From the NCBI GenBank assembly GCA_964187785.1, contig OZ076409.1:54438001-54502000 (forward strand): DNA of 64,000 nucleotides. Reading direction: 5' to 3'. The notes beneath the pieces were generated by a model, which did not search any database, was not told the DNA's origin, and saw nothing but the letters and a program-made list of their open reading frames with translations. How positions within the stretch are numbered: the stretch's first letter is position 1; the number at the start of each line of letters is the position of its first letter. Of the stretch, positions 30,401 to 57,239 are shown one piece after another. The position numbers and the translations under genes were made by a program. Origin of the DNA: Amphiscolops sp. MND2022 (lineage: Eukaryota).

Positions 30401-30990
30401 AATAGCTATTCAGTCGTTAAAATCTCTATCTAGTATTGGTGTATATCTGGCGTACAATTCCACAGTAAATAAAGAGCAAATATAAGTAAGTTTAAATAAA
30501 TGACATTTAAGTGTAATATGAAATTATTGGTATGTAAACAAAGTATGTGGTGGAATTGGCATGATTTTAAAGAGGGTTGGAAAGTATGTTTACGCAGTGT
30601 AAATATCCCCAATACCAATAGCATTACATTTTCTTCAAGATCATATGAAAAAATCAGATAAAAATTTATGTATCAAAAATGGGTTTTCTTGGGGTCCGAC
30701 CAATGTCTCTTTGGGCGTTAATTTCTCTGGACCCAGGAGAGATACGAGTTCGGGTGCTTCGAGTAAGAAGTTGTGTTAACACCTCTAATGTGTACGTGCC
30801 AAGTTTGGTAGTGATTGGATAAGCGCTTCTCCAAAAAAGGGGAGTGGTCCTTTTTTACATGTAGCCGTTTTGCTAAACGTGGTAATTTTCAACTGAAATC
30901 TGGACTACGTTTCAGAGTGTTTCGAGTTTTAAAATTCACGAGTCACGTTCAAATTTCACTCTGCCGTCTTGCAATTGACTGGCGCGAACA
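24413..30990 (-). mobile_element. Decayed BEL/Pao LTR retrotransposon with three LTR copies
   Basis: LTRs begin TGTAACGG at 24413 (partial), 25025 (to 25851) and 30106 (to 30990). TSD ATCCG at 24408-24412 and 30991-30995. BEL-type coding remnants lie between them. Confidence 0.9.
25797..29700 (-). pseudogene. BEL/Pao gag-pol remnant with many stops and frameshifts
   Basis: Gag CFGC and CGVQGCSRRHHQLLH; RT-region FRFREQEIAITADLEPMFQQ; Pao TQRAVLSHVLAVFGPLG; integrase PHLGGIWKRLVRSYK and VEQTLNARP; C-terminal DGSVR...KRSVIKL. Confidence 0.88.
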
Positions 30991-31899
30991 ATCCGGATGT
31001 TTACTTGTTGAGTCGCAAATAAAGGCTTGCTTGCAAGTAGAAATTCCAAGGCAGCAGGGCCAATTTGTATGCCCTAGCTTTCCAAATTTCAGATTGGGGT
31101 TCGAATTCCGCCCGATATAAAAGATGTTTGGTGTTTCTAAAAGTAGTAAAAATGTAAAGAGTTTAGAGAACTTTCAAAAACCAATTGCAAATCTTGAAAT
31201 ACATTTGCTATTATTTGTAAACTGTGTGCTCTCCGAAGTGTCTGCATACTATACCACTGGGGTCTGGAATCATTCTATTGTAATGCTCAATACCACATAG
31301 CTTCAATCAAATAAGGTGTAAAAAATCAAACCAACCTAACCCTGGGCGCAAACAACACTTTCCCCATAGGCTTGAAAAACTTCCAAAGGATGAAAACAGG
31401 CATATTCCATCTAGTTCATTCACACAGCTTCTTTTTCTTTCAAAAACTTAACCACACTGTGTCTACTGAACCCATTTTTGCCGTCATTTTTGGAGCAGAT
31501 CTCCAGTGACGAAACATCGTGGATCTACTAACCCAACTAGTACTTCTCCGAACCAACTGCGAAGACAGCGTATGTTCGTGAGTGAAGCCGAAAAAAACTG
31601 ATGTTACTCCGAAACCTATATTGCATGCCTAAACTTCGTGCTACATTTTGTAGATAGCAAAAATTTGACGCGCGCAAAGACAATTTAAGTCAAAAATGAA
31701 ATGAAACAGAGAAAAAGTGAAACTGCTTACAATCAGAAATTTACTTTTCTGTTCCGCTACTCGGAAAAATTTTGTTTCCGCTTCCTAATTATGTTAAGAA
31801 GTCAACTATATCAGTATCGTTAGTTTTAATTTAGGTACGGAATTGATCGGAAAAGTCCTTACCTTTTAAAAAATTGTTTCACAAAGCCGAAAAAATTTC

Positions 31900-32359: not shown

Positions 32360-32921
32360 TGTAAGGGCTAACGTCCGAATGTTCTCTCAGATCACAAGCG
32401 GACCTCGAGTCCCTCTTTGTCATTCTTGTATTCATGTTCTCCCATGCGCTTCTGGTTCCATCCTCATTTAAGGACGTACCCGGCTCAACGCCATGTTGAC
32501 CCAAAGGCAAATTTTCTACCATATTTTGTATTTCCGGGATAACTCTCTCACTTATAGCAGAACTAATGGCCCTGGTAATCTGTGATTGCATTAGGTCCAT
32601 CATAGCCTCCATCTCGCGCGACATCCTAGCGTTCATTTCCACAGATAGTGTATTGATAGACTCTATCAGTCTACTTTCCCCAACTGGTTCATTTCTACCA
32701 TCGATGTTTCTGATCTCATTTTCTTGAGATGAATTTTCTCTGTTCGGAAAGGACTGAAAGTCTCGTTGTCCCTCAGGGACGTTAATCAAGCTATCAAGTT
32801 CTCTTTCTATAGAGTTGGAACTTCTGCCACCTAGCATTACGTCCATGTTGCCGTAGTCTGACAACATATCTAATTCTCTAGATTTTCTAGACTTGGCCTT
32901 TTGTCTCCTCGTAGAAGGCAT
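32360..32921 (-). other. Intact copy of the Gag N-terminal coding segment in the 3' LTR
   Basis: ORF 32283-32969: MPSTRRQKAK...SDVSPY runs to the LTR end and then into flanking DNA. Confidence 0.8.
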
Positions 32922-33987
32922 TGAAAATGTTATTCCAGGAGAAAACATTTGAATTGTTCCTGGGGACAAATACTTCTATTTTCAGATTAATCAAGATGAG
33001 CGTAGTGTATCAGGTAGCTGCAAAATTATGATTAACCTTTGTCAGGCCGACTTGGGTATATATACCCCAGAGGGCATGACAGGCAAAATTGTAACGGTCA
33101 TGATACTAAAAATAGCAACGCAAACTAAAAATAGATACGTCAGCACTATAAATAGTAACATGACATCATTTTAGACTTGTGCGGGCGGCTAGATCAAAGG
33201 GCCCGACAAGTCTCATCCGCATATGGGTCAAATTGTTTACAAGTATAATTCATGCAAGCAACAGTTTACATGCACAACAATTCATGAAGGCCCTGTTCGG
33301 CGTATGGCCGTTGGGGTTTTCTAATTCAGTCCCATCATAATATGAGAGAGCAACAATTACATGTTAACAGTGTATATGTCTGTTTATTGCATGGGGTGGG
33401 TTATTTGCATCTTCAAGCCACTAATTAACTGGAATACCAATTTCATATGGCAAGTATACAGCATTTGAGTATTCATCGTGCTAACCGGCCATGACAGGCC
33501 TTATTTACTGCATAGCACCAAGACAATTAATACAGTGAATTGGGACAGCTATGTCACATAGCCGCTTTCGTCCTTTTTGTAATTACTGAATACCAATCAA
33601 GTATAGCATTAGAGCACAATAAGGCCGGCAAAGTTAGTTGGCCGCCTTGGTCCATTCTAAATAGTCATTAGCACAGTTACGTAATAAGTAATAAGATGGC
33701 TATTACAAACTGCACTCTGATTGGCCAATTGACCGTAGACGGCATAGCTAGCCATACTGAGCAGGCAAACATTTGAACACGTTTCCTTTCTGCCTGTCAG
33801 TATGGCTTGCTGTCAAATGTATTTTACATAAGAAATAACAATATAATCCATCAATTAATATTACATGTTCAAAATAATACTGAATGTTTGAAAGTTTTGG
33901 TTTATAATGGGAGCGTCCCAGGTAGGGCGATTGGCTTCGTATGGTCAATCGTGTAAATGTTGCCATCGCAGGCGGCAGCCTGCGACA
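32360..33987 (-). repeat. 3' LTR of the Gypsy element (1628 bp)
   Basis: Starts TGTAAGGG and ends GCGACA on +. Matches 46498-48122 apart from about 10 substitutions and two small indels counted by eye. Confidence 0.96.
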
Positions 33988-34732
33988 CTCCCCCTGGTAG
34001 CAATAAGAAAGTGCCCACTTGCATTCCTTCCAAAAAGGCTCTTTTGCGCGCTTCTAGTTGATCTGCCGATTCTCCCAAAATGGCCGTCTTGCGCAAGTAG
34101 TCTGTGACAGCTTCACTCTGGATTTGTAATGTAGATTTCCCACATATCACGCAATCTGAGTAATTTGCCATAGGATTGTTCGTCTCAATCTCCATTCCTT
34201 GGAAATGGTTTGCAACTGCGTCCAATGACTGCTGGGTAATCTCGTCCGCTGAGTAGGTGTCGTAAGTTGGTCCTTTCTCTTCTGGTGGGGGCGACATGGG
34301 AGTGTCCACCATGGGAATGATTTCCCTACACAGCTTGATAGGGTGATTATTGCGCACTCGGTCGTCTCGCCGTATTGGGCCGTTTCCTTTTCCTAATGAG
34401 AAAAAGGATTGGTCAAGAGTAGGCCTTGTTGCAAAACTCGCCCCGGAGGTCCCGTACCTTGGTGGGTTATATCGGGGGGCCTCGTTTCTAATTTTCAGCG
34501 ATGTGGATGGACCAGGCACTGGGATGGGTGATGATAATTCCATCTCGACACACTGGGCCATCATCATGATTTCGTCATCTATTTCTTCTTCGTCCTCCGA
34601 TGACAGTTGAAGGTCTAGCACCGAAGTCATGCTTAGGTCACACATTCCCTCCTCTTCGTCGCTGGACAGGCAGATGATATCTATGCCCTCGGGCGCTGCG
34701 CCGATGAAGTCTTCAGGAAATCGTTGAGCCAT
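33902..34732 (-). CDS. Accessory ORF3, 276 aa, acidic N-terminus with SIM-like motifs and a CxxC; unknown function
   Basis: ATG-initiated open frame inside the element. Motifs IDIICLSSDEEE, VLDLQLSSEDEEE and CVICGK. Reads through the PPT and ends 86 nt inside the 3' LTR. Confidence 0.75.
   Translation of the reverse strand: MAQRFPEDFIGAAPEGIDIICLSSDEEEGMCDLSMTSVLDLQLSSEDEEEIDDEIMMMAQCVEMELSSPIPVPGPSTSLKIRNEAPRYNPPRYGTSGASFATRPTLDQSFFSLGKGNGPIRRDDRVRNNHPIKLCREIIPMVDTPMSPPPEEKGPTYDTYSADEITQQSLDAVANHFQGMEIETNNPMANYSDCVICGKSTLQIQSEAVTDYLRKTAILGESADQLEARKRAFLEGMQVGTFLLLPGGVSQAAACDGNIYTIDHTKPIALPGTLPL
33988..33995 (-). other. Polypurine tract (AGGGGGAG)
   Basis: Purine run directly upstream of the TG of the 3' LTR on the minus strand. 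Confidence 0.88.
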
Positions 34733-35079
34733 AAATCTATCTTTTATTATCTTTTTTGCAATTTTGAATGCGATAGGACAATTTTAATTCGGTTTGAGTA
34801 GAGCAACTGTTTAGTTTGAAAGTTAGGAAGCAAATGGCGATTTTCATTTTTCAATTTCTCGATGGTTTTGCTTCACATTTTCCCGGTCTTTCGTTTCCCG
34901 CATCATGTTTCGCTGACTAAACTTTCCAAGATGTTCTTTGATATAGACCGCCTTCTGCTTTGTTGACCGACGATCAACTTCAGCTTGCCTAAGTCGGCAA
35001 AGAACCTTCAAGGACTTCGTCTAGTGTTTATCTCCACTTGATATCCACTTGAGAATTTCAAGAGAGGGTGATGAAGTTT

Positions 35080-35155
35080 TAAGGCCACGCGCGGCGCATC
35101 GCCGCGACAGCCAATGGGAATCGCCCACTCAGTCCGCTTTTCAATATGGCGGAAT
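35080..35155. promoter_or_regulatory. Putative internal bidirectional promoter core
   Basis: CpG-rich patch (GGCCACGCGCGGCGCATCGCCGCG), CCAAT box and YY1-like AATATGGCGG between the divergent 5' ends of ORF3 and the antisense gene. Confidence 0.5.
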
Positions 35156-35892
35156 TAAAAAGAATAATCCAAATAAGGAAATAATAAAATAACTAAAAAT
35201 AATGAAATAACTAAGGTAATAAAATAATGAAAATGCATGTTTCGAAATATAACTAATGTGGATTTCTCTGGCAGATTCCATCCACAAAATAATTCTCATA
35301 ATTGTAAAAATATTTGACATCAAATCCAGTTTGCCACGAACTCCAACTTTGCTACTGCAATCGCAATCATTTTCAATTCTTCAATTGTCAATTCGTTACA
35401 TTACTTACATTCGTATTTATCCATTGTTTATTTAGTACAGAGTCATTGTTTGAATTTTATACTGCCTCTCATCCCCTCATTCAGGATCGTTGTCCAGCTG
35501 CCGGACTCGTCCAGATCTTCCTTTTCGTCGTCATCAAGACCTACTCCTCCCTCTTCACTGCCAAAGATTTGCCCAATCAGGACATTCGGTTCCTCAGGAT
35601 CTTCTAGCCTGGTTTGCAGTACAATTTCAATACGTCAAAGATCTTCACGTCATACTCCTTCAGCTCCCAATTGGCCAACAACTGCAGGTAAGCTATCTGG
35701 TCTTTTAATTTTTGAACGGAAATAAGCTTGATCAAGGCTTTTCATCTCGTTCATGCACTTCCTGTCCATTTTCGTCGATGCAATTTAAACGTCATGTTTT
35801 ATTCCTTTTCACTTCCGGAAGATTTTACTGCGGTTTGGATGGACTCATATTCAGGAAGTTGTCCGCATGTATTTATCTCTTTTCATTTAGGT

Positions 35893-38800
35893 ATGACAAC
35901 AGAGGAAAATTCGCCAGAACCCACTACCGCTCCAGTTGTCGGGAACGATGAAACTGAGACTCCAGAGACCGTTGAGTTACCAGGCCTTATCAGGCCTTCT
36001 CCCCAAGTGTCCGAAGGCAGCAGGTCTACTGAAGAAAGTGTGACCGCATTTATTGAAAGGACCCTTGACGTAATGTCTCAACCCGAGGCTGAGATCATAG
36101 GTCCACTGCAAAGTCAGCCAGGTGTTACTGCCCGGATGGTCACTGTCAGCATCCCCTTTCTAAAAGCCTCTGTGTCGGAGCCCATTGCTGTGAGGAATGA
36201 TCTGACAAACATTGAGACAGGGGCCGGCAGTAACAAAGAAACTGAATCTACAGAGGAAGTACCAGGACTATATGGCGACACCACAGATGTGGAAGATTTT
36301 ATGGACAGCTCTGGCGTTGCCGTTTACCCACCAGTCGCTCCGAATGTCATTTTGGATTCTACTACTTTCCCTGATCTAGAAGAGGGATTCCATGAAGACT
36401 CAGGGCACAGTGATTCCGAACAGGAGCAGTATCGAGCCAAATTAGACGGCGCCGATAGGCAACTTTCCGCAAAGGGCAAACTAGTCATCAAGAAGTATTT
36501 TCAGGACACTCGCAACATTGAACTACCCAGAGATCAACCAGTCATCGCTCTTACCGCAGATGAGATGCACGCTGTCCTGAGGACCGTTTCCGACGAATCT
36601 GTACTTTCGTCCTACCACATGATGAAGTCTTTGTTGCTTCATGCTACTCGGGGAGCTCCCCAGGATAAGAAAAGGCCTATGCCCAAACGGTGTGCAACTC
36701 CTGCACGGCCGTTCACTGACAGTTCAGGAGATGAGAGTAAATTTGAGGGACACGTCTCAGATGGTTACACTAGTGGAGCCTTCAATACAGATGAAGATCC
36801 TTACCAGTTGGGGTCCAGTTCTGGCACAGATTGCCTGAGTGAATCTGATCCTTTGTCTTCGACTCCAAGGGCCCGGAAAGTCCACGCCACCATCACGTCC
36901 CGGGTAGATACTGCAACGCCAAACTCTGGAAGCGGGTATAGCAGTGCTGATTACCAGCCACTCTCGTCGCTTGGACGGATACCCGAGCAAGAAACTCAGG
37001 ACAGGAGCCCAGCCCGGAAAAGACGCAAGTTGCTCAGCAAACCTGGGAAGGTGATGAAAGATGCCTATTTTAAGGGCATCCAATGGACCCGTATCTTCGT
37101 ATCTGGCCCCGTCGATCCCGTCCACAATAAATTCAAGTTTTACTGCATGCTATGTAAAACTAATGTCTCTATTTTCTCAAAGGGTGCCAGGGAGATCCTA
37201 AGACACTATAAGACAGAAGGACATCTCCGGAAAGATCAAAAGTGGAGGTTCACCCATCTGCAAGAGGCTGATGAAGTTACTGGGGTTGTTACGCACTATG
37301 TCAGAGGGAAAGATGGTTACGTCCTTACTCCAATTGAGCTGGAGCGAGAAAAGCCATTATTCATTGATGCCCCCCTGATCGAGGCAGGTGATCGTTTCCC
37401 GTTCTACGATGACTACATGGCTAGTATTGGAGGACTAACCAGCCCTGATGACCTTCGGACCAGTACCTTAATCTCATTGATTGGGACTTTCGTACCGCAA
37501 GATGGCAATATTTCCCTGTTGCGAAACTTATGGACTCGAGTGGGCATGTTCACCAACCACCAAGCCTTGTTTTCCTCATTCGATTGGGGACCTGCAACTC
37601 TTACTGTAAGTAGAATCTTCATCTATAGAATTAATTGTAAGACCCAATGTGGCCTCCGGCTAAGACGTCCCTTTTGTACATTTGTGTTTTGTTTTAGAAC
37701 GTCTTCCATCACGTTTTCATGAGAGGTCTCGCAGATATCTCCAGTCACATCATGGCTACTGAGATGTACTCGATTGAGTTCACGACAGAGGGCATCCACC
37801 GGTGCATGTCTGTCCGTTTCTGGAGAGATGACTCACTCGTTCGGGTTGAACTTCATCGGCACAATCAAGCTGACCCTTATCCGTGCTGTTACTTAACAGC
37901 TATCTCATGTCTGCTGTTAGTTGTGTCCTCAAAGCCCAATCTTGTCAGTGTTTCCGGATGTTCTTCCATGGTCTTCAGAGCTTTAGAGACATGTGGGCTG
38001 TTCAACCGCGGGATTCAGTACCCGTTCCGCTTCGAGGTTTTCTCCCTTCCCGAGTTAATGCAGCCCACAGCACTACTGCAGACTGGTTACATCTTTGGTC
38101 GAATTGACATTTTCTCCCAACTGAAGATCCTAGTTGTCTACCTCCGAGGCGGGCTCAGTCAATCTTGGGCTCTACAGAGTCCTGAACTTTGCAAGGTGAT
38201 TTATTTTCCAACATAATTTTTCATTAGACGTTGACCTGGTGACCTGGTGTCGATACTCTTTCCTGGTCACTTTCATAATAGTAAAAGCAGTTCTCCTTAT
38301 TTGATTGTGTTCCGTAGGCCATAACAGCATGTGATGTGGAACTCAAGAAGATCCCTGCCGTTTGTTCCGAGCTCGTTAGAAGCTGGAAAGCTATCAAGGA
38401 CTACCTGACCAGTATAGCCCCAACCCAGAAGATGCAAGGAGCTAAGAATAAGGTAGCTATTAGCCGTTTTCTAGTTGATCAGCATTGGTAACTACACCAC
38501 ACTGTAATCTTGGAAGATGTAATCCTTATGAGGTAAATTTCCTTTTAAGCCTCAGAGCCTGGAATGGGAGATTATTCTAGATGACTTCTTCACCATCAAG
38601 CTTGAATTCCTCTCCTTGCTGGTCCGCGATTGTTAGTTTTTCTTCATTTTTATTTGAACCGCCAGCGTAGTTGACCTACCGGCTCATGTGCCGATCACGG
38701 CCTTAAGCATAACCACAATTGTGATGAGGTGGGGGATTTGGTGGATTCTGGTGATTTGCATCTGACTCTAAATTTGTTTAGATGCCAAGTGTTTCGAACG

Positions 38801-39938
38801 AAGTCTCTCTGGACGGCGGGATGCAACCCTCTTCGTTTATGGCCAATATTGCAGATTCATCCGCCGGTTGTGCCACCGCGCCATCTTGCCCAAATGTATC
38901 CCAAGCGATACAGACTGGAATGGTCTCTTGCAATTGTGCCCTGACGATCTGAGACAATTATCAATCCGTGATTTCTTGCATCGCCTCAAACTCACATGTG
39001 ACCTTGATCTGGTTTGTCAAGCAAAACTGGAGAAATCTAGGGGATCAAATCTTGTACCCGCTAATCAGGCTGAGTTGGTCTCCAAGGAGAAGGAGAATTT
39101 TGGGACTGAAGCCCGGGCATATATAGTCACTCTGTTGGAGTCTTTGCTTCGGGATATTCACTTCACCGCGAATATTGTCCGCGGTATGGGTAGCTTCGAT
39201 CCCCATGTGTTATTGACATTACCTCTTGAGCAAGTATCCTTTTGCTTCAACGCTTTGTATGACAGCTTTCGACTTCGCGGCTGGGTGGACGAATCCTCCC
39301 GCAATGACTGTCGGGATGAATATTTCGAGTTTCTGGACTACTTTCGCAAATGTTACCCTTCCATTAAGTCTTCCCCAGGGACTATTGCTCACGTGTTACA
39401 TCTCCTTATTCCAATTACTGAGTTCCGAAGTCGTGCTAGGCTTTTTCGCTTGTTTCAGTTGTGCTGCCTTTGCATAACTGAGGGACATCAAACCCTTCCT
39501 GCCGTTAAATTCCAGGATGTCGATACCTCCAATTCCCGATGCCGTCTTTCTGCGGTAATACTGCCCGCCCAATCCTACTTGACAAATTGCCCAAGTGCGA
39601 TTTCCGTTTGTACCACTGAAGCCGCTCTAGCTAACTACAAGGAATTGGAGGGACAATTTAGTTCCGGACAGCTTGCTGGAGACCCTTGGGTTCACGTCGA
39701 CGTCTTTGGGCAGGCGAATTTCCTGAAGACCCTTACTGCTGCCTTCAAGAATTTGAAAGGAACTCCCGTGGTTGGCGTTAGCACGGCTTCACGTTCGTCC
39801 TCTGTCTCAACTTCTGCTGGGCGAAAGATAAATTGGGCTGCTGGGCAAGCTCAAAAATTGGCCTATTTTGGCGACATTCCTGCTAGTGAGATCTCAAAGA
39901 CAGTCCAAGAATTGCGAGAAGGAAGCTCTAAAAGTTAA
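35893..39938 (+). CDS. Antisense spliced cargo gene: ~1192-1194-aa protein with BED-type zinc finger and degenerate hAT-transposase-like body
   Basis: Coding exons 35893-37605, 37698-38195, 38318-38452, 38550 (or 38556)-38631 and 38782-39938. All introns are GT-AG with compatible phases (0,0,0,1) and give one stop-free frame. Probable 5' UTR intron 35688-35890. C-x2-C-x16-H-x5-H finger (FYCMLC...RHYKTEGH), basic NLS PARKRRK, AATAAA at 40085-40090. hAT assignment is from motif resemblance only. Confidence 0.8.
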
Positions 39939-40115
39939 ATGTACATAGTGTACATTCGCCATTTTAGACTTTTCTATTTGTAAATTTCAGTTCTGTTTCT
40001 CGTTTTAGTATTTATATAGTTAGTTTCTTCTGAGTCAAAGAAGTCAGAGTAGTCCCAGTAAAAACATGCCATCTCGGGCAGTAAAATAAATAGGGACATA
40101 ATTTAACGTTTCTGA

Positions 40116-43100
40116 CTAGTATCTGTATTCATCAGTATAGTTGGGGTTGGGGTTAGGTCGAAGGTTGTATTTCCCCCCTCTAGGGCTAGAGTTTTCATCA
40201 GTTTTTTCATTTGCTTTTTCATTCGATATTCCGGGCACGGTAATATCATCCCCCTCGTTAGGAGAGTTTTCCTCGCTTTCTAATTCATTTGTGACGTCAT
40301 TCACGTTCTTTTCTGAACTAGGTGGTGTATTGCCACCATTGTGGCTATTTCGGCTAGTGGCCGTTCTCGGCCTTTCTATTTCGCTGCTTTGTTCGCCTCG
40401 CGCAGCATTCTCGCTAACGTCATGTTCATCATGCATTATAAGTGCGTCTCGGCTAGCGGCCGTACTCGGTCCCGCTTCATTTTCATTCTTTTTGGTTCGT
40501 TCATTCAGTTCGATGACGTCATTTGCGTCTCGTGTCATTGTGCCGTCTCGGCTGGTGGCCGTCCTCGGCCTTACCGCGTTGTCATCAGCGTTGTCATAAA
40601 TGACGTAATCACTAGTCGTGACACCAGCATCGCTGTCTGGTGCTTGCGATTCTTCGTCCGTATTATCGTCTCGTCTCGGCTCAAAGAGATGGTAGTCAAA
40701 ATCTGCTTCCCATGAGATGGTGTATAAATCATCTTGTGGTATGATTATTTCATCATCTGGTTGCAATTTCTCTTTGGCATATTTGTCCTCTAAAGTCGTA
40801 TTAGGAACAAACTTTTTCAGGCGAATTCGGTGTAATATCTGTGTTTTATTCGTATTTAACCGGCGGACAATGTAATTGTCGTTAGGTAATACCTTTTCAA
40901 TTCGATAAGGACCGATCCAGCGATATTCTCTGAATGGTATTTTTGATCCTTGATTGTCCGCTTTAGGTTGTAGGATAAAGCAAAAATCTTGGTCACTGAG
41001 AGGAGCTGCTTTGGCCTTTCGGTCATAGTACTCCTTATATTTCAAGTAGGACTGCATAATGTTATGTTTCGTTTTGTCAATGAGAACTTTTGTTCTCTGT
41101 TGTAATTCTTCAGCAAATTCAGTAGTCGGGAGGAAATCCTTATTAGGATTATTTCCAAGTTTATGGTCAAGAACATTATAGGGAATTCTTCCGTGAAAGA
41201 CCTTGCTCGGTTCACAACCGATGCTGGAATGATAAGTTGTGTTATAATTGAGCACTGCTAGTGGCAAATATTTGTGCCATTGACGGCGATATTCCCCTGA
41301 GGCCATTTTCAAATTTGTTTTCAATGAGGCGTGAGTTCTCTCGAGTTTGCCAATTGTTTGTGGATGTTTAGTCGTCGCACATTTTAGGGTTATTCCTAAT
41401 ACTTGCGTTATCTCTGCAATAATTTTTGATGTAAAAGCGGTTCCTTTGTCGGTGATGATCGTAGTTGGCAAATATGAGTGCTTTGTCATGATGTCTATTA
41501 AGACCTTTGCCGTGTTAGAGGCTGTTGCCTCAACTAACGGGTAGGCAAACAGATATCTTGAGAAGACATCTATTGCTGTCATCACTGTTTGGTAACCTCC
41601 GCTTGTTGGCAAGTTTGGGAGTAAATCGATTTGCATTGCGTCCTCTGGTCCAAGGTCCCATTCTGGCAAGTTAAGCAATTCGGGCGTTATCGTGTTGTTT
41701 GGGACCCGTTTATCTTTTGCGCAAGTTACACATCCTTCTACCCACTTTTTAACGTGTTTTGCTATACCGGGGTAGTAGTATTTCTGTCGTATTTCTTGTA
41801 ACATCTTCGATATACCCGGGTGTTTGTGCGCCGTTCCGTGTAAGGCCTGTAACAATTCTGTCAAAAGGTGTTTTGGTAAGAGAACTTGGTGATACTTGAC
41901 TTGTCCAGTTTCATCATAATATTGTCGTGTGACTATTTCGTCTTTAAGGACTATTCGGTCCAAGTTGTAAAGGTAGTGTTTGTATCGGATATCTTGCTGG
42001 AGTAGTTCTTCAGAATAGTCTTCGTTCTGAATTTTGGCTTTGAGTTGGCGCAGTATAGGGTCGTTGGATTGTTCAAGTAAAATTTGATTCGTTCTGCGCA
42101 TTTTTTGGGTAAAGTTTGTAATCTCATCTACTATGTTTTCAGATATTGCGTCAATTTGAATAAAGCCTTCTTGGTCGATTGGGTTGGTTCGGTTTTGTTT
42201 TTTACGCTCCCAAATTTGAGCTTCTGTCTCATCATCTTGCTCCGTGAAGAAAACTTGTTCCTCTTCAGCAACGCCTGCCGATTGGACATTGACCTCGATG
42301 GGCTTAGTCTCTATGTCTTCGCGGATTTTAAGGACTAGTTTCTCTCTGGGGTCCATTTCCATGCGAGATAAGTAGTCGGCGGCTGTGTTGTTTTTCCCTG
42401 GTATATGTGCTAAGACAAAATTGAATTGTATTACATAGTCACATGCATTCCAGAGTGTTGGAGGGATTATCTTCGTCTGGAAGAATCTCGTGACCGATTT
42501 GTTGTCCGTGAGGATGGTAATCGGTTTAGGGGCTCCCCAGAAAATATGTCCAAATTCTTTGAATGCGTAGTAAATCGCTAAGAATTCCTTAGCGTATATG
42601 GACATTTTGAGTTGCGATGGCGTAAACGTTTTTGAGCCATATGCAATTGGAGCGTATGATTTTTTGACAGATGAATATTTCTGGTTTGGGTCGTCCTCGG
42701 TAAGTATGGCGTAGCCGGCCGCTGTGAAACTAGCGTCAGTCATCAGGACCAGTTGCTTGTTTGGCAAAGGTTGCTTCAGGGCCAATTGGCTACATTTGTC
42801 GAGGTCCCGATTGATTTCATTGAACTGTTGTATTAGTTCTGTGGTCACCAGGACTTTTTCGTCTTTTTTGAGAAGTTGAAAGAAAGGGGCTAATTTTTCA
42901 GATAATCTTGGGATATAGTTCCTGTAATAATTTAGGAAACCAAGATATCTTTGTAGAGCCTTTTTAGATTTGGGAAATTTGGTTTTTCCTAGGAAGTTTG
43001 TTATTCGCTCCTTTTGTGGTTTGACTCCCTCCGGAGTAATTGTTCTCCCCAAGAAATCGATTTCCGTTGCCCCGAAGTGGCATTTGTGCATTGTCAGTTT

Positions 43101-45365
43101 AAGGCCAGCATGCCTAATGCACACAAAGGTTGCTTTCAAATTTTTTATGAGATGATCCGCATCATTGGCGGCTATGCCAATGTCATCGACATATTGGGCA
43201 CATTGATCAGCTTTGATAACTTTATCGAGATATTCCCTCATGAAACTTGAAAATGCTGATAATGCCCTGCTAAGGCCCTGGGCAAGTCGTCTATACGCAA
43301 AGGTGCGGCTTGCAAAGTTGAACGCAAGCATCTCAACGGACCTTTGGTCCGCCATTGGTAGGCAGTGATATGCCTGTGAGCAATCAAGTTTACAGAATAG
43401 TTTCTTTCCTGCCATATGTTGTGCAGCGTCCGTTAGGGTACTAACCGGATGATTGTTGTTGATATAGTCATCCGAAATGAGGTTGTTAATTTTCCTCAGG
43501 TCGACTAGTAGTCTTAGCTTCCCATTCGGCTTTTTCTGTGCGAATATGGGACTGGCGTATTTCGAAAATGGCAGTGTAGTTATTATGCCATATTTGTGTA
43601 ACAGGGCCAGTTCGACAAGTATGTCCTCTTTTAAATTGACTGGAGTTGGGAGACTTTGGCTGTAAGCAGGCGAATCGTCCTTAGGAGTCAGTTTGACCGT
43701 GAATTCTTCATTCATTCCGATGTCAAATCTGTGTCGTGCAAATATGTCATGGTATTCGACTAAAAGCGATTCGATCTTTTTGATTTCATGTTGTTGCAGC
43801 ATGGAGTCTTTCCAGTCGAAATTGCCAAGGAATTTGCGGCGTGACTCATCATCATTCTGTGGATTCAATTGTTCAGCTTCTTGGAGGTTTCGTAATTCTT
43901 GAAGGATTCGTCGTTGGATGGGAGTATGGGAATCTTCGTCCCCTGGGTTTTCTGGCGTAGGAAACCAGTACTGTTCATATTGGTCATTGTTCCGATTAGC
44001 CTTGAGTAGACTACTGACATAGTAGATCGCATCCTCTTCGTTTTCATTGAGGAGATGCCATGTGGACACCGGGTCAATTGGTTTGACGTGTTTCATCTGT
44101 TCCGGTGTTAGTACGGAAAAGTTTGCTATGTGTAGTCCCTTTTTAAGCTTGTACGGTTGGTCTGTAAAATTGTTGATATGAACGTTGACGTTTCCATTAG
44201 TCAATGTGACTATTGCGGCACAGAATGTGATGTCGCCTTCTTCATGGAGGAGATCACTGGGTTGCAACACCCCTGTGACCGTATTTTCATTGTAGATTTG
44301 GGATTTGATCTCTACTAAGGTACGGTCATTGGGTGGTATTGTGATATCGTCTGGGTTAAGTATTGGTTCCAGTACGTTAGAGTATTTATGGTCAGCCGTT
44401 TTGAGTTGCATCGAGAAATATGGGAAATTGAGTATGCCTTGTCGCATGTCCAGTACTGTATGATTCCTCTGGAGGAACATTAGTCCTATGATAGGGCCAG
44501 TCAGTTTTTTCATTACTATGAATATTTCATGGAATTCAATATCTCCGACTTCGAACTTGAGTTCAACAGTGCTCTTTGGGGTTTCCAATTGTCCGTTTGC
44601 GACCATAATTTGAAACGTCGGGGCAGGTCCCTCTTTGACTATGGATTGGGGCGCCAATAGGCGTATTTTCCTGAGGTCTGCTTCCGGAATTGCGCTGGAG
44701 TGAGCTCCAGTGTCTATGAGGCCGTCTATGGTTAGTTCCCCAAAGTCCATCGGGAAATATAGCATCCGTTTTTTGTATTTGAGTCCGAGGTTTGTGGATA
44801 GTGGTATGTACGCTGGTTCTCCCTCTTTAGTTACCAGGACATGTATGAAGGCTGTCTCGTCGAGGAGGCCAGGTGTGGCCTGTGTCTCTTCTGCATGTGG
44901 TTGATCTTTGATCGCATCAAAATTTGGTTCCCATTGTTCGATGAGTGCCCGGGACAGTATGGTGTCTACAATGTCAGGGTCATCCTCATCGTCTGTTGGC
45001 GGGTAGTCATCATTCCGAAATTGTAAATTGTGTTTATCATATAACTCATCATCCCAGTACGGGTCTTTGCCGTACTCGGGGTCGTAGTATTGGGGGTTGT
45101 AGTCTTCGACAGTTTGTAAGGGTCGGAATTGGGTTTCTGAGTCTTTAGTAAGGTTATTACGTCGATATAGGTATGGGTGGTCACTGTGAATAATATATTG
45201 AGTTTGAGTACAGGCTTCCACCATCTGCTGCTGCCAGACAGTCGATGGGGTCCCTGTGATGTTCTTTTGTGATTGCTTATAAGCGATGTTAGCTGGGTCA
45301 GATATGACATACTGTCGTATCGACATTTGGTCAGAGATTTGGAGTCGTGGCAAAATTAGTTTTTT
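40116..45365 (-). CDS. pol: Pol polyprotein: aspartic protease, RT, RNase H, integrase (intact, ~1745 aa)
   Basis: Protease LIDTGA; RT LLVDLRKIN, KLDCSQAY, YVDDI; RNase H LMTDAS, KEFLA, LTDNKS, ADYLSR; integrase H-H-CC (HGTAHKHPG...CVTC), QIDLL, TDKGTAF, GKLERTH; GPY/F motif WIGPYRI. No stops. Confidence 0.97.
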   Translation of the reverse strand, partial: KKLILPRLQISDQMSIRQYVISDPANIAYKQSQKNITGTPSTVWQQQMVEACTQTQYIIHSDHPYLYRRNNLTKDSETQFRPLQTVEDYNPQYYDPEYGKDPYWDDELYDKHNLQFRNDDYPPTDDEDDPDIVDTILSRALIEQWEPNFDAIKDQPHAEETQATPGLLDETAFIHVLVTKEGEPAYIPLSTNLGLKYKKRMLYFPMDFGELTIDGLIDTGAHSSAIPEADLRKIRLLAPQSIVKEGPAPTFQIMVANGQLETPKSTVELKFEVGDIEFHEIFIVMKKLTGPIIGLMFLQRNHTVLDMRQGILNFPYFSMQLKTADHKYSNVLEPILNPDDITIPPNDRTLVEIKSQIYNENTVTGVLQPSDLLHEEGDITFCAAIVTLTNGNVNVHINNFTDQPYKLKKGLHIANFSVLTPEQMKHVKPIDPVSTWHLLNENEEDAIYYVSSLLKANRNNDQYEQYWFPTPENPGDEDSHTPIQRRILQELRNLQEAEQLNPQNDDESRRKFLGNFDWKDSMLQQHEIKKIESLLVEYHDIFARHRFDIGMNEEFTVKLTPKDDSPAYSQSLPTPVNLKEDILVELALLHKYGIITTLPFSKYASPIFAQKKPNGKLRLLVDLRKINNLISDDYINNNHPVSTLTDAAQHMAGKKLFCKLDCSQAYHCLPMADQRSVEMLAFNFASRTFAYRRLAQGLSRALSAFSSFMREYLDKVIKADQCAQYVDDIGIAANDADHLIKNLKATFVCIRHAGLKLTMHKCHFGATEIDFLGRTITPEGVKPQKERITNFLGKTKFPKSKKALQRYLGFLNYYRNYIPRLSEKLAPFFQLLKKDEKVLVTTELIQQFNEINRDLDKCSQLALKQPLPNKQLVLMTDASFTAAGYAILTEDDPNQKYSSVKKSYAPIAYGSKTFTPSQLKMSIYAKEFLAIYYAFKEFGHIFWGAPKPITILTDNKSVTRFFQTKIIPPTLWNACDYVIQFNFVLAHIPGKNNTAADYLSRMEMDPREKLVLKIREDIETKPIEVNVQSAGVAEEEQVFFTEQDDETEAQIWERKKQNRTNPIDQEGFIQIDAISENIVDEITNFTQKMRRTNQILLEQSNDPILRQLKAKIQNEDYSEELLQQDIRYKHYLYNLDRIVLKDEIVTRQYYDETGQVKYHQVLLPKHLLTELLQALHGTAHKHPGISKMLQEIRQKYYYPGIAKHVKKWVEGCVTCAKDKRVPNNTITPELLNLPEWDLGPEDAMQIDLLPNLPTSGGYQTVMTAIDVFSRYLFAYPLVEATASNTAKVLIDIMTKHSYLPTTIITDKGTAFTSKIIAEITQVLGITLKCATTKHPQTIGKLERTHASLKTNLKMASGEYRRQWHKYLPLAVLNYNTTYHSSIGCEPSKVFHGRIPYNVLDHKLGNNPNKDFLPTTEFAEELQQRTKVLIDKTKHNIMQSYLKYKEYYDRKAKAAPLSDQDFCFILQPKADNQGSKIPFREYRWIGPYRIEKVLPNDNYIVRRLNTNKTQILHRIRLKKFVPNTTLEDKYAKEKLQPDDEIIIPQDDLYTISWEADFDYHLFEPRRDDNTDEESQAPDSDAGVTTSDYVIYDNADDNAVRPRTATSRDGTMTRDANDVIELNERTKKNENEAGPSTAASRDALIMHDEHDVSENAARGEQSSEIERPRTATSRNSHNGGNTPPSSEKNVNDVTNELESEENSPNEGDDITVPGISNEKANEKTDENSSPRGGKYNLRPNPNPNYTDEYRY

Positions 45366-47056
45366 GATTCAGGTTTTTTAGAATTCGATTGGCCTGATGA
45401 GGATGTTGTGGATTTTTCATTCTTGGTGCGAGTGCCTTCGTCTTCAGAGGGCTCCGTGTCTTTGGTGGAGTCCTGTCTATTTCTTTTTGGACGAAGATGG
45501 GCACCAGCGCCACGCCAACATTTCTCTGCTGGGTGATTGGTTTTACTGCAGGTGGGACATTCTGGATAAGTTTGTCGTTGAGGCTTCTTGCCGTCTTTGG
45601 CCTCTGATTCTTTCTTCTTTTTCAGTTTTGGACAATTTTTCCAGAAGTGGTCCTCTGCCTTGCAGTATGAGCATTGGTAATTTTTGTTGGTGTCGATGCC
45701 GTTAGATAGTAGATTTCGGGACTTGTTGGACGACGAAGCCATTGTAGCAATGGGTAGGTCATCAGATTCTTCTAATGCGTTTAACTCGAGTTCCCGTTCC
45801 AGATGTGCCACAATCTCCTCGTAGGTCCCGTTTTCCAGTCGAGCCATATTTACTGATCTTTTGAGTTTTGGGGGTAATTTAGCATACAAGAGGCTGTCTA
45901 TCATGCTTTTGGCGTTTTCCCCAAAGGCCTTCTCGGCACCCTGGTTGAGTTCCTCAAGAAAATCGGGTAGTTTCATCGTGTTGGGATCAAAGATGAGCCT
46001 GTGCCACTTGTGTTTAGCTGTGGCTTGAGACTCGGGTTTGACGTACTTTCTGCGGAATATGACCAATACGTCTTCTAATGTTTGACGGTTTATGGAGTTT
46101 ATATTTCGGAAAGTTTGCAGTGCTCCTTTTCTGAGCAGAGAATGAAAATGATTTATTTTCATTTGTTCTGTCATGGCAGGCTGCATCTTTATCATTGTAT
46201 GAAATAAATCTTCAAACAATTCAAATTTCTCTGTTTTGCCGTCAAATGTCATGGGGTTCGTCATGACTGGTCTAATTGTCATCGAGTGTGGTTTATTTTG
46301 GAGGTTTACCAGGACATCTGCCAATCGGTTGATAGGGTCTTGTTGCTGTTCTGCCGGAGCAGGCTCCGCTATTGGCAGAGTTGTATCCAGAGTTGTATCA
46401 TGAGTAGATTCTTGTCTTTGGAGGTCTGGCTGAGAGTGAATTCGTCCTGTGAGGAATTCAGGAATCGGCTGTTGGAGTTCGGTAGCTCCTGTCACCATGT
46501 AAGGGCTAACGTCCGAATGTTCTCTCAGATCACAAGCGGACCTCGAGTCCCTTTTGTCATTCTTGTATTCATGTTCTCCCATGCGCTTCTGGTTCCATCC
46601 TCATTTAAGGACGTACCCGGCTCAACGCCATGTTGACCCAAAGGCAAATTTTCTACCATTTTGTATTTCCGGGATAACTCTCTCACTTATAGCAGAACTA
46701 ATGGCCCTGGTAATCTGTGATTGCATTAGGTCCATCATAGCCTCCATCTCGCGCGACATCCTAGCGTTCATTTCCCCAGATAGTGTATTGATAGACTCTA
46801 TCAGTCTACTTTCCCTAACTGGTTCATTTCTACTATCGATGTTTCTGATCTCATTTTCTTGAGATGAACTTTCTCTGTTCGGAAAGGACTGAAAGTCTCG
46901 TTGTCCCTCAGGGACGTTAATCAAGCTATCAAGTTCTCTTTCTATAGAGTTGGAACTTCTGCCACCTAGCATTACGTCCATGTTGCCGTAGTCTGACAAC
47001 ATATCTAATTCTCTAGATATTCTAGACTTGGCCTTTTGTCTCCTCGTAGAAGGCAT
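45356..47056 (-). CDS. gag: Gag with two CCHC zinc knuckles; N-terminus encoded in the LTR and frameshifted in this 5' LTR copy
   Basis: ORF 45356-46582 has a capsid-like region (FDGKTEKFELFEDLF) and the knuckles CSYCKAEDHFWKNC and CPTCSKTNHPAEKC. The 3' LTR copy shows an uninterrupted frame from MPSTRRQKAK to the LTR end. The 5' LTR has 2-bp and 1-bp deletions with a stop at 46622-46624. Confidence 0.9.
45359..45365 (-). other. -1 ribosomal frameshift slippery site A-AAA-AAC at the gag/pol junction
   Basis: Minus strand reads TCA AAA AAC TAA. The X-XXY-YYZ heptamer sits just before the gag stop, and the -1 frame continues as K-L-I-L-P-R-L-Q into pol. Confidence 0.85.
46481..46497 (-). other. 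Primer-binding site (TGGTGACAGGAGCTACC)
   Basis: TGG immediately follows the terminal CA of the 5' LTR. It resembles a tRNA-Leu-type PBS (TGGTGTCAGGAG) with a mismatch; tRNA identity not verified. Confidence 0.85.
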
Positions 47057-48122
47057 TGAAAATGTTATTCCAGGAGAAAATATTTGAATTGTTCCTGGGG
47101 ACAAATACTTCTATTTTCAGATTAATCAAGATGAGCGTAGTGTATCAGGTAGCTGCAAAATTATGATTAACCTTTGTCAGGCCGACTTGGGTATATATAC
47201 CCCAGAGGGAATGACAGGCAAAATTGTAACGGTCATGATACTAAAAATAGCAACGCAAACTAAAAATAGATACGTCAGCACTATAAATAGTAACATGACA
47301 TCATTTTAGACTTGTGCGGGCGGCTAGATCAAAGGGCCCGACAAGTCTCATCCGCATATGGGTCAAATTGTTTACAAGTATAATTCATGCAAGCAACAGT
47401 TTACATGCACAACAATTCATGAAGGCCCTGTTCGGCGTATGGCCGTTGGGGTTTTCTAATTCAGTCCCATCATAATATGAGAGAGCAACAATTACATGTT
47501 AACAGTGTATATGCTTGTTTATTGCATGGGGTGGGTTATTTGCATCTTCAAGCCACTAATTAACTGGAATACCAATTTCATATGGCAAGTATACAGCATT
47601 TGAGTATTCATCGTGCTAACCGGCCATGACAGGCCTTATTTACTGCATAGCACCAAGACAATTAATACAGTGAATTGGGACAGCTATGTCACATAGCCGC
47701 TTTCGTCCTTTTTGTAATTACTGAATACCAATCAAGTATAGCATTAGAGCACAATAAGGCCGGCAAAGTTAGTTGGCCGCCTTGGTCCATTCTAAATAGT
47801 CATTAGCACAGTTACGTAATAAGTAATAAGATGGCTATTACAAACTGCACTCTGATTGGCCAATTGACCGTAGACGGCATAGCTAGCCATACTGAGCAGG
47901 CAAACATTTGAACACGTTTCCTTTCTGCCTGTCAGTATGGCTTGCTGTCAAATGTATTTTACATAAGAAATAACAATATAATCCATCAATTAATATTACA
48001 TGTTCAAAATAATACTGAATGTTTGAAAGTTTTGGTTTATAATGGGAGCGTCCCAGGTAGGGCGATTGGCTTCGTATGGTCAATCGTGTAAATGTTGCCA
48101 TCGCAGGCGTCAGCCTGCGACA
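46498..48122 (-). repeat. 5' LTR of the Gypsy element (1625 bp)
   Basis: Direct repeat of 32360-33987. Followed on the minus strand by the TGG-starting PBS and flanked by TSD AGTGA. Confidence 0.96.
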
Positions 48123-55000: not shown

Positions 55001-56313
55001 TATAGAAATTGAACTTCAATACTTCGTTCAATTCATATTTGACATTTTCTTTTTTGAACGCTGAACATAGTTGTTTCTGCCAACACTTTTGGAGTTTGTC
55101 AATATTCAATGACGTCGTCTCTCAATAGGGTTTGAGAAAAATTCGGCTTTTGTTCTTCGGTGAGTTTTTTGGCTGTAGTCGCAAATGGTTGAGAAGTAAG
55201 TGCTCAAATTGTATTTCTTCCTGTTGCATTTAAACAGTGGCACTTGTGTTTGGAATTTTTCGGGTCATGCTGTCTCTCATCGAGTGTCACAATTGATGGA
55301 TTTTGGTCAATGTGATGGTTTTTTGGGGAGCGTGGTTTGTTTGTGTAGTCCTGATTAGCGTTGTAGTCTGAGGGTATTATTGGTGGCTGACACTGGACTC
55401 TCGTCACCATGTCGGGACTGCTGGTCGTCGCAGTTCTTTCGACTGCAGCTCTTTCGCGTTCTTTTTCCTGTACTTCTAGATATTCAATATCAATGGTTTT
55501 GTCCGTATCGTTTAATGGAAAATTGGGAAGACTTAAAGTTCCTTCGTTATCAATGTAATTGTTCGTTTTGATAGTACGGTTTGCTGATGATAGAAGTTTG
55601 CAATTGTTTCAATTTGGATTGAGATTTCTGCTGATATCAATACGTTTGATAAGGACGTTTAATAGAACTATTATTCTTGATAGCAACTTGCAGTTTTGGT
55701 AGTTCAAAATCTTTTGTGTTCGTGACATACCAAACGGATTTAACGCAATACTTGTTGCGCACCCTGTTAGGTGACTGTATCAGCCAACCATAGCGCATAT
55801 TTTGATTATTGTGAGTTGGCGCAAGTAGTCATTCACTATTTTAAAGTGGGTTATAAGACTGCACGTCGTTATGGCAACTGCATACTGAGAGTTGTGTTTG
55901 AAATACTTGTTAAGGTTAATCGTCACTAACTACTGTTTGCATCCGTAATGAAACTGCATACTGTATGTCAATTGGTAATATGACAATGCCTAATTGGCAG
56001 TATATGAAGATACAGCCATTCCAGTGATACTTGCATGTAGAATTGTGTAAAAGGTAATGATGAACACCAGAACGATAGGCATAATTCTCATTGATTGAAT
56101 AAAATATTGATATAAGGTGAATGGTATGATGACTGACTATTACAGTCGTAGTTAAAATGTTGACTTGTTCGAAAACGTGATTGGCAACTAACGGAAAGGG
56201 ACTGTTGGTGGTTTGAAGTTTTAGTCTTGTACTTTTATATTTCATGCATCCAAAGAACGGAATAATTTTGATTTTATTCCTTTCTTCTTTTCTTATGCCA
56301 TTTGGTCTTGACA
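49039..56313 (-). mobile_element. Old, decayed Ty3/Gypsy element related to the intact one, with RT/RNase H missing
   Basis: Diverged LTRs ~49039-50067 and 55410-56313. TSD GAAAT at 49034-49038 and 56314-56318. PBS TGGTGACGAGAG next to 55410; purine tract near 50068. Protease-region remnants (LMYLPFLF, LFGMSFFKEHCVLLDI) align by eye with pol at ~44400-44770; integrase C-terminal IRIRLK near 52110. Confidence 0.82.
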
Positions 56314-56862: not shown

Positions 56863-57239
56863 GTCTTTTTGATAGTTCGAACCATTTTTAGTTGGAGATG
56901 TGATTATGTATTCTGAGCTTCAAGCAATGAGATTGACAGAAACTTTGAAAGACTTCCTGTGCCGTCTTTACAAATGGTTAAAACTTGAAAAGTAAGATTT
57001 TTGTGCGTTCCTTTTTGGTTCACTCATAAAAATGGTATACTCAAAACGTAACAAAATGGCTTAGAAAAACTCGGTTTATTATTTTTTGATGGCTAACACA
57101 AGGATAGCTGAACCAGTTACACCGACCATAAAGTTTATTTTGGTATTAATGCAGTACATATTAGTTTATTTCACTTTTGCAACAGATAAAGATAAAATTT
57201 GAAAAACTTGATACGATTCTAGTACTTGATTGGCTCTCC

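Follow-up and report, generated by a model that had tools for sequence, protein, structure and literature searches.

Organization of the element and its antisense gene

The window, a 64,000-nucleotide stretch of Amphiscolops sp. MND2022 DNA, contains a full-length Ty3/Gypsy LTR retrotransposon whose genes and signals are listed in Table 1. The domains of pol follow the Gypsy order of protease, RT, RNase H and integrase. The 5 bp flanking the element are identical on its two sides. Its LTRs are 99.4% alike: across 1625 aligned bases there are 10 mismatches, and two small indels further set them apart. Judged by its LTRs the element is young, as the initial annotation had stated.

Table 1. Positions of the Gypsy element, its genes and associated signals within the window.
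Feature	Position	Strand	Remarks
Ty3/Gypsy LTR retrotransposon, full-length	32360..48122	-	15,763 bp; 5-bp target site duplication flanks both ends
5' LTR	46498..48122	-	1625 bp; TG...CA ends; followed by a primer-binding-site-like stretch with TGG at its start
gag-like ORF	45356..46499	-	DUF1759 just below cut-off; weak CCHC knuckle
pol	40116..45368	-	1750 codons; protease, dUTPase, RT, RNase H, integrase
3' LTR	32360..33987	-	1628 bp; preceded by a purine-rich tract
Second accessory ORF	33902..34732	-	276 aa; gag-pol sense; extends into 3' LTR
Region between the divergent accessory genes	34733..35687	.	Conserved GC/CCAAT-containing block near 35060-35160
Antisense gene, predicted 5' UTR intron	35688..35890	+	ATG 2 nt past acceptor; GT and AG in 30/30 loci
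Antisense gene, exon 1	35893..37605	+	aa 1-571
Antisense gene, exon 2	37698..38195	+	aa 572-737
Antisense gene, exon 3	38318..38452	+	45 codons
Antisense gene, exon 4	38550..38631	+	Upstream acceptor favoured; alternative start 38556
Antisense gene, exon 5	38782..39938	+	Helical domain, then low-confidence Ser-rich tail
Antisense gene, candidate polyA hexamer	40085..40090	+	Kept in only 15/30 loci

We found that the element holds a real gene on the strand opposite to gag and pol. Its five exons join into a single frame of 1192-1194 aa without an internal stop, the length being set by the exon 4 acceptor, and its four coding introns are all GT-AG with phases 0, 0, 0 and 1. The gene lies tail-to-tail with pol, with the stop codons at 39938 and 40116 separated by 177 bp. 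These features, and a predicted 5' UTR intron, had been proposed in the initial annotation and were borne out. The polyadenylation signal proposed with them is present as a hexamer but is conserved in only half of the loci. The intron 3 acceptor is most likely the upstream AG, which gives 1194 aa: all 30 close loci and all seven distant loci have it, whereas three of the seven distant loci lack the downstream AG.

Several observations indicate that this exon structure goes beyond chance. Canonical splice dinucleotides are found at 232 of 240 sites across 30 loci. Exon lengths are constant across loci while intron lengths drift; in six pairs with copies ~77% identical, the exons show a single 3-nt event and the introns 6-13 indels of 1-2 nt. 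Together with the frame-specific dN/dS described below, these data rule out chance open reading frames. An env-like gene was also ruled out, since the gene is on the wrong strand and no env family was matched.

Relatives lacking single introns confirm, at the level of sequence, three of the four junctions. Introns 2 and 4 are precisely absent from locus L043, intron 4 from P0010, P0088 and L058, and intron 3 from P0013; four database proteins read across intron 1, all at one shared position. Splicing of the antisense gene is thus indirectly shown, by precise intron losses.

The initial annotation overlooked a second accessory ORF, which has an acidic N-terminus, a C-x2-C motif and is under purifying selection. 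We take its acidic N-terminus to belong to a SUMO-interacting-motif-like class. This ORF and the antisense gene are predicted to be divergently transcribed, and the region between them is a candidate internal bidirectional promoter. A putative promoter belonging to the antisense gene is indirectly indicated by the conserved upstream block and the 5' UTR intron. No repeated short motif beyond those in shuffles, such as might serve as a binding array, was found in the LTR and promoter region.

The antisense gene is linked to pol and constrained across the family

We found the antisense gene tail-to-tail with pol in 37 of 37 checkable genomic loci, down to ~30% protein identity. These comprise 30 close loci, the window itself being one, and 7 distant loci at 30-55% identity; all were picked for carrying the antisense gene, so that the share of gene-less elements falls outside this count. 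The gene is thus not confined to one copy, and a nested insertion in a single copy is ruled out by the shared position and the lack of terminal repeats. The family has 6326-7366 first-look candidates in the 1.07-Gb genome, with hundreds of scored, diverged copies, and the initial annotation had understated this scale of thousands of candidate places. On sequence grounds the gene is old and clade-wide.

The predicted frame has a dN/dS of 0.086-0.102 at a dS of ~1.1, far below the value near 1 that would have told against a functional gene, and the two shifted frames gave 1.95 and 2.09. The lowest value was obtained for the finger region, aa 381-571 (0.044-0.054, ~0.045). This pattern of substitution indicates that the antisense gene is under purifying selection on its protein. 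Stops or frameshifts are present in 20 of the 30 close loci; such lesions are expected in inserted copies after insertion.

Alleles of the antisense gene recombine freely with respect to promoter, ORF3 and pol alleles. Gene alleles only 77% identical sit beside integrase regions that are 94-96% identical (e.g. L014, L016-L020, L022), and in L031 the pol protein is 93% identical while the accessory protein is ~50% identical.

A database search with the finger region returned 400 proteins, and the 120 among the matches listed are unnamed family members. Scanning metagenomes with the finger alignment yielded 3 loci among 349 pattern matches; the same scan with exon 5 gave no match, and the viral contigs searched held no relatives of the gene. 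Database searches found no longer relatives of exon 5, which is weak evidence.

The predicted protein has a BED-like finger and lacks hAT catalytic residues

The protein begins with an acidic, Ser/Thr-rich N-terminus (20% Asp/Glu in the first 180 aa), and the conserved segment of exon 1 starts at ~aa 170-190. Exon 1 also holds basic NLS-like stretches and a BED-like C2H2 finger at aa 418-444 (C418-x2-C421-x16-H438-x5-H444). All three features agree with the initial annotation. The Cys and His residues of the finger are 99-100% conserved in 131 aligned rows, and the finger region is the most constrained portion of the protein.

The segment encoded by exon 2 sits where the RNase H-like core is expected, and its invariant residues are Glu598, Trp613 and Arg625 with no conserved catalytic Asp. 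With the catalytic positions placed by the order of motifs and not by structure, the conserved Asp is missing at aa 593-606 (15-17 rows) and aa 652-664 (14 rows), CxxH is missing at aa 678-695, and ERxFS is missing at aa 1022-1050 (~140 rows). This is consistent with the proposal that the catalytic Asp, Asp and Glu and the CxxH motif have been lost. The longest exact inverted match between the gene flanks is 10 bp, a length at least equalled in 76 of 300 shuffles, so no terminal inverted repeats were found there. With no DDE, no CxxH and no terminal repeats, the predicted antisense protein is not an active hAT transposase.

Evidence for and against hAT ancestry

The initial annotation had aligned short peptides of the protein with hAT transposase blocks. 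These peptides are present, but sequence tests gave them no significant match. No Pfam hAT family was found in any of 90 exon 5 rows (PF05699 included) or in 15 finger-region and exon 2 pieces (PF02892 included), and PDB sequence searches gave no match. PF14291 and PF18658 had no matches in the genome, where controls were also silent. With a profile built on 14 hAT sequences of the same genome, 12 of the 280 family rows reached P<0.01, rows that are not independent; 10 of these 12 match the finger in the BED register, and one of 280 reversed rows scored. Against the same-genome hATs, a small and mostly Ac-type set, hhalign and HMM comparisons gave no match outside the finger. The finger score was reached by none of 30 shuffles, and other regions did no better than reversed or shuffled controls. 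Profile tests of the exon 2 RNase H-like core gave no match.

The language model Atlas matched aa 381-571 to DUF4371, FAM200-ZBED5 RNase-like, zf-BED and zf-C2H2_12 clusters at 0.81-0.83, scores below 0.9 and with a recognition value under threshold; exon 2 gave no usable Atlas match. Exon 5 was modelled from a 90-row alignment with a pLDDT of 82 in the helical domain, compared with 37.6 for a single-sequence model. Foldseek searches of PDB and viral libraries with this model returned nothing at E<=0.001. VIA re-alignment of Foldseek's 351 chains gave a best Z of 5.2, and Hermes was not among the matches listed. In a wide fold search the model weakly matched Hermes (8edg_A), with a Z of 4.7 and an rmsd of 6.6 over 167 residues. 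The match is collinear, with model residues 1-279 on Hermes 368-609, the segment predicted from motif order. Among the best 50 rows it is the longest alignment (the next is 110 residues) and the only one to span model 1-279, but it ranks 33rd and its Z lies within the tool's background for helical models. The finger, the Atlas leads and the Hermes match moderately support hAT ancestry, and we consider the gene probably hAT-derived.

Discussion

Our data point to a spliced, selected, family-wide gene, with splicing predicted, on the antisense strand of a Gypsy element. These parts of the earlier proposal, that the retrotransposon domesticated a DNA-transposon protein as an accessory factor, stood up; the hAT ancestry on which it also depends has only moderate support. 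The protein may well be a hAT-derived, disarmed, nuclear DNA-binding regulator or anti-silencer of the element. A hAT transposase would have been stripped of catalytic residues and terminal repeats, keeping its BED-like finger and helical C-terminal half. The introns of the gene lie opposite to the genomic RNA strand and for that reason survive reverse transcription. The gene would now be an accessory, expressed as a spliced mRNA from an internal promoter, and its product a nuclear, sequence-specific regulator that binds the LTR or internal promoter of the element and sustains transcription despite host silencing. We infer the DNA binding, its target and the direction of its effect. The model would be host-domesticated hAT proteins such as ZBED1/DREF, which act as gene activators; ZBED1 is described as binding DNA through its BED finger and activating genes via SUMOylation of Mi2-alpha (PMC7471704). 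Free recombination of gene alleles against promoter, ORF3 and pol is hard to reconcile with targets that are allele-specific and have tightly co-evolved. A trans-acting factor should also invite cheating, yet strong selection is seen. A broader version, in which the disarmed hAT protein and a divergent SUMO-binding-motif protein form a two-gene counter-silencing cassette swapped between lineages of a Gypsy clade that domesticated a DNA transposase, is possible but doubtful.

Other explanations have to be weighed. That the gene is not hAT-derived, or is so only by way of the host, seems unlikely. It would then be a zinc-finger gene captured from the host with its introns, perhaps one that itself began as a hAT domesticated long ago, or else a helical protein of other origin. 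All hAT sequence tests beyond the finger were negative, Foldseek was empty, and five introns suit a host gene no less than a transposon. However, the Hermes match is collinear on the predicted segment, the Atlas leads are to hAT families, and no relative examined carries a host-gene-like name or Pfam family (10 clusters; 120 proteins listed). A hAT-derived integration tether or pre-integration-complex factor, binding element cDNA or host DNA and steering or assisting integrase, is rather improbable. The finger and NLS-like stretches would suit it, the strong purifying selection would be easier to understand if the protein acted on the cDNA of its own element, and nuclear import has been proposed for plant antisense ORFs (PMC7264820). 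Diverged gene alleles on near-identical integrases, and L031, make an allele-specific integrase interface unlikely.

We give similarly little credence to a post-transcriptional or self-limiting role: a Rev- or CERV-like part in the export or protection of genomic RNA, or a curb on copy number by the protein or antisense RNA. The gene overlaps the genomic RNA over its full length, Cer1 reportedly needs a spliced accessory protein to export its genomic RNA (PMC10309623), and antisense transcripts could make dsRNA that silences the element (PMC7264820). Yet the constraint is on the protein and peaks at the BED-like finger, and the very large family argues against strong self-repression. Nested insertions are common, and the lesions in two thirds of the close loci would suit a neutral hAT passenger with no role for the retrotransposon. 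Such a passenger is most improbable and, judged by selection and linkage, largely refuted: dN/dS is ~0.09 at substantial divergence, the position is identical in every checkable locus, terminal inverted repeats are absent, and the catalytic residues are missing in all aligned relatives, which makes self-mobilisation impossible.

Gypsy elements with antisense accessory genes have been described before. The aORF-3R genes, between pol and the 3' LTR, include maize Grande gene23, RIRE2, the Retand TRP28 ORFs, PvRetro13 and Botrytis Boty brtn; according to two reviews they have no similarity to other transposons and their origin is given as unknown (PMC7264820, PMC11963269). As described there, they share with the Amphiscolops gene its position, antisense orientation, family-wide presence and conservation, as well as a presumed nuclear and DNA-binding product and probably a promoter of their own. 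The Amphiscolops gene differs from them in its size (~1190 aa), in its four coding introns, which are conserved even among deeply diverged copies, and in an origin that can probably be traced to a DNA transposase. Boty brtn is itself reportedly multi-exon. The 3' antisense ORF of plant Tat/Gypsy elements encodes a plant mobile domain that has a relative in MULE DNA transposons (PMC4408406), and for which an anti-silencing use has been speculated (PMC4408406, PMC5418596). That ORF likewise lies 3' and antisense in a Gypsy lineage and has a domain akin to a DNA transposon's. However, the domain is an add-on and not the transposase, and MULEs are thought to have got it from host genes, whereas the Amphiscolops gene appears to be a whole transposase body, taken and disarmed.

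With hAT transposases (Hermes, PDB 8EDG; DUF4371/FAM200-ZBED5-type) the protein shares the BED-like finger, the apparent order of segments and a weak collinear C-terminal fold. It differs from them in having no DDE, CxxH or PF05699 match, and neither terminal inverted repeats nor an 8-bp duplication. It is also extended by 380 aa at the N-terminus and is mobile only inside the retrotransposon. ZBED1/DREF, hAT-derived BED-finger DNA-binding regulators, are the template for its proposed action (PMC7471704). They are described as host genes, whereas the Amphiscolops gene resides on a mobile element with many copies, between whose lineages it recombines. VANC proteins are named as anti-silencing proteins of VANDAL transposons (PMC13547354). 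They belong to plant DNA transposons. VANC and CERV of Cer1 would resemble the Amphiscolops protein in role, as accessory factors encoded by elements against host control, and no sequence relation to either was seen; CERV is described as the product of a spliced Cer1 mRNA that acts in RNA export (PMC10309623).

We found no hAT-derived gene in an LTR element in the titles and abstract openings searched, and no description of a retrotransposon domesticating a DNA transposase in the literature searched. The initial statement that no example had been described therefore holds for that literature, with the MULE-related Tat ORF as a caveat (PMC4408406). Reviews of 2020 and 2025 describe it as unknown where the antisense accessory ORFs of LTR retrotransposons come from and what they do. 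Among possible sources they name the insertion of a nested transposon, for which they find no support in sequence (PMC7264820, PMC11963269). The Amphiscolops family looks like a case of such an origin. Its diverged scored copies, conserved introns and defined, predicted DNA-binding module make both origin and function directly testable. If true, one transposon would have domesticated another, giving an antisense accessory gene a traceable origin. Transposase domestication, known from host genomes, would then have a mobile element among its agents. This could also account for the spread of one Gypsy clade to thousands of sites in a genome of 1.07 Gb.

Structure and conservation of the antisense gene

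The antisense accessory gene is real and old, and is probably spliced. The five exons proposed in the initial annotation join into 1192 aa with no stop. A DNA search of the 1.07-Gb genome (32 of 1585 candidates scored) gave 30 close loci, one of which is the window. The gene is thus not confined to this copy, since it was found at 29 further close loci and at seven distant loci. Nor did its flanks contain the terminal inverted repeats of a nested hAT insertion. Canonical splice dinucleotides were present at 232 of 240 sites across the close loci, and 10 of 30 retain an uninterrupted frame. Exon lengths (1713, 495, 135, 76 and 1157) are constant in copies about 77% identical while intron lengths differ, and six pairs of such copies show one 3-nt exon indel each versus 6–13 intron indels of 1–2 nt.

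When the window was compared with six ~77%-identical copies, dN/dS was 0.086–0.102 (dS 0.95–1.16; the pairs are mutually non-independent and dS is close to saturation), so the value near 1 that had been considered was not observed. In large contrast, the shifted frames gave 1.95 and 2.09.

We found a GT at the identical position for introns 1 and 3 in all seven distant loci (30–55% protein identity). Introns 2 and 4 are missing from L043 exactly at the predicted junctions. Intron 4 is also missing from P0010, P0088 and L058, and intron 3 from P0013. In four database proteins, intron 1 is translated as an insertion at the same place. That separate lineages lack single introns so precisely provides indirect support for splicing. 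These losses would most simply be explained by recombination with spliced cDNA, the alternative being intron gain in the other lineages, and suggest that the antisense mRNA may sometimes be reverse transcribed and then recombined back. For intron 3, the sequence favours the upstream AG as the most likely acceptor, which gives a predicted protein of 1194 aa. The GT and AG of a predicted 5′ UTR intron are kept in 30/30 close loci, and a candidate polyA hexamer in only 15/30.

The host element and its second ORF

The LTRs of the host element are 1625 and 1628 bp and differ by 10 mismatches and two small indels. Its pol is a single 1750-codon frame whose domains follow the Gypsy order: protease, dUTPase, RT, RNase H, integrase. 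A BEL/Pao-type peptidase found elsewhere in the window suggests that the eukaryotic host is an animal, and no feature seen indicates a plant. Placement of a dUTPase between protease and RT is already described in the available portions of PMC6431247 and PMC5408684. A frame within the LTR, without a Pfam match, is possibly an N-terminal extension of gag.

The second accessory ORF likewise had no Pfam match. It has several deeply diverged alleles and is under purifying selection (pN 0.08–0.31, pS 0.33–0.80, five pairs). Its N-terminus, hydrophobic and then Ser/acidic, is kept in alleles 61% identical and presumably resembles a SUMO-interacting motif. The block between the two divergent genes includes a stretch that we take to be YY1-like.

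Coordinates of features in the window
Feature	Position	Strand	Remarks
Full-length LTR retrotransposon	32360-48122	-	LTRs and identical 5-bp flanks at both ends
LTR-internal frame, ~185 codons, to LTR end	32360-32921; 46498-47056	-	Open in 3′ LTR, interrupted in 5′ LTR
Second accessory ORF	33902-34732	-	276 aa; through purine tract into 3′ LTR; upstream of, and divergent from, antisense gene
Conserved GC-rich block	35060-35160		CCAAT; between the divergent genes
Predicted 5′ UTR intron	35688-35890	+	
Antisense gene	35893-39938	+	Five exons
dUTPase domain of pol	about 44110-44350	-	E 0.00037, just under Pfam cut-off
BEL/Pao-type element, older	24413-30996		LTR-like repeats about 81-85% alike
Peptidase_A17 match in BEL/Pao-type element	27544-28035		
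Direct-repeat pair	49171-56288		79% alike, separated by ~6.3 kb; likely a degraded LTR element
Tandem duplication, recent	12147-20119		~4 kb, 99% identical; internal short repeats and palindromes
MITE-like near-perfect hairpins and dispersed inverted repeats	6843-6937; 7876-7959; 78-129; 4618-4705; 58742-59045		
Tc3-type HTH	57166-57651		Weak match

Linkage and relatives

The gene continues into the pol 3′ end at 30/30 close loci, and a Gypsy pol end lies just downstream on the opposite strand at 7/7 distant loci; every locus was retrieved through the antisense gene, so these counts cover gene-bearing elements only. The Gypsy clade bearing the gene is very large. Protein searches of the genome gave 108, 114 and 150 scored matches out of 7366, 6990 and 6326 first-look candidates, which are not copy numbers. 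Public collections contained 431 representatives for exon 5 (E ≤ 0.001), and a search with the finger region gave 400 proteins; no protein name or Pfam family appeared among the matches listed. Relatives on three metagenome contigs (28–35% identity), too short to reach pol, share introns 1–3 where covered.

Ancestry of the antisense gene

The initial annotation derived the gene from a hAT transposase. Its C-x2-C-x16-H-x5-H finger is conserved at 99–100% in 131 aligned rows. Set against a profile built from the genome's own hATs, it gives a weak score in BED register. Atlas, a language-model search of protein clusters, returned hAT-associated clusters at 0.81–0.83 for aa 381–571, a lead only. 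The exon 5 model, a confident one (pLDDT 82.3), was aligned to 48,161 structure chains. The hAT transposase Hermes ranked 33rd (Z 4.7, rmsd 6.6), a Z within the tool's background and level with unrelated helical bundles. Its alignment was the longest among the best 50 rows (167 residues, next 110) and joins model residues 1–279 to Hermes 368–609; this match gains weight because the hAT hypothesis preceded the fold search. Hermes 368 opens the helix whose end falls in the block that aligns with 'LSGESYPTL' from the genome's hAT frame L035 (numbering offset of 78 inferred from chain lengths), and 'LSGRRDATL' at the start of exon 5 has spacing equal to that of the L035 block.

The finger and the collinear Hermes match speak for the proposed origin. 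Against it, nothing was detected outside the finger by Foldseek, by Pfam, by PDB sequence profiles or by hhalign, with a comparison set of only 14 mostly Ac-type hAT sequences. We consider hAT ancestry likely, and a non-hAT or host-gene origin unlikely. The suggested loss of catalytic positions held up: no conserved Asp, CxxH or ERxFS occurs where expected, even in the most distant relatives, which places the product outside the active hAT transposase family. The gene is probably a domesticated, dead hAT transposase. The genome also has several hAT transposase frames (L032–L036; 597–697 codons, PF05699) with apparently intact catalytic motifs, none detectably close to the accessory gene.

We found no hAT-derived gene within an LTR element in the open-access articles searched. 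In the parts available of PMC7264820 and PMC11963269, antisense ORFs located in the interval from pol to the 3′ LTR have been described from plants and Botrytis, their origin is stated to be unknown and a nested-insertion origin lacks support from transposon similarity. The nearest precedent is in Tat elements, whose antisense plant-mobile-domain ORF is related to a MULE domain; this domain, unlike the disarmed transposase-like body described here, is not a transposase (PMC4408406, PMC5418596, in part). The Pfam names Transposase_28 and Transposase_32 appear among plant extra ORFs (excerpts of PMC11963269, PMC11728184), and the rotifer-element extra ORFs in the accessible text of PMC5408684 are of other types. 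CERV (PMC10309623) and accessory-factor networks (PMC13547354) are, from their available sections, analogies at the functional level, and brtn receives a mere mention in those of PMC8365987 and PMC4227169.

Possible function and module shuffling

The antisense protein is acidic at its N-terminus, where Asp/Glu make up 20% of aa 1–180. It further has NLS-like basic stretches, a finger under high constraint and a body resembling a disarmed transposase, a ZBED1-like anatomy that matches domesticated hAT regulators. This anatomy, together with a selected second ORF whose N-terminus presumably resembles a SUMO-interacting motif, favours a DNA-binding activator or anti-silencer, a role we propose tentatively. 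ZBED1 itself uses its BED finger to bind DNA and turns genes on by SUMOylation of Mi2-alpha (available part of PMC7471704). No repeated-motif binding array for the accessory protein was found in the LTR or promoter region. That the protein is instead an integration tether appears doubtful, and an RNA-level or self-limiting role of the gene is just as improbable. Constraint extends throughout the gene (dN/dS 0.04–0.16 by segment, strongest at aa 381–571), and we regard a neutral passenger as very improbable indeed.

Nine close loci (L014, L016–L020, L022, L026 and L027) carry gene alleles 77–78% identical to the window and integrase regions 94–96% identical to it. In L004 and L005 the gene is 97–98% identical, yet the second-ORF allele is 61% identical. 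In L031, synonymous difference is 0.09 for protease, reaches 0.62 for integrase and is highest, at 0.75–0.81, for the accessory gene. Across L001–L031 the modules (second ORF, putative promoter block, antisense gene, integrase core and pol tail) are combined almost independently of one another, a mosaic that fits recombination between co-packaged genomes. That alleles shuffle so freely speaks against close, allele-specific partners of the accessory protein, and shows that old alleles persist on shared element backbones.
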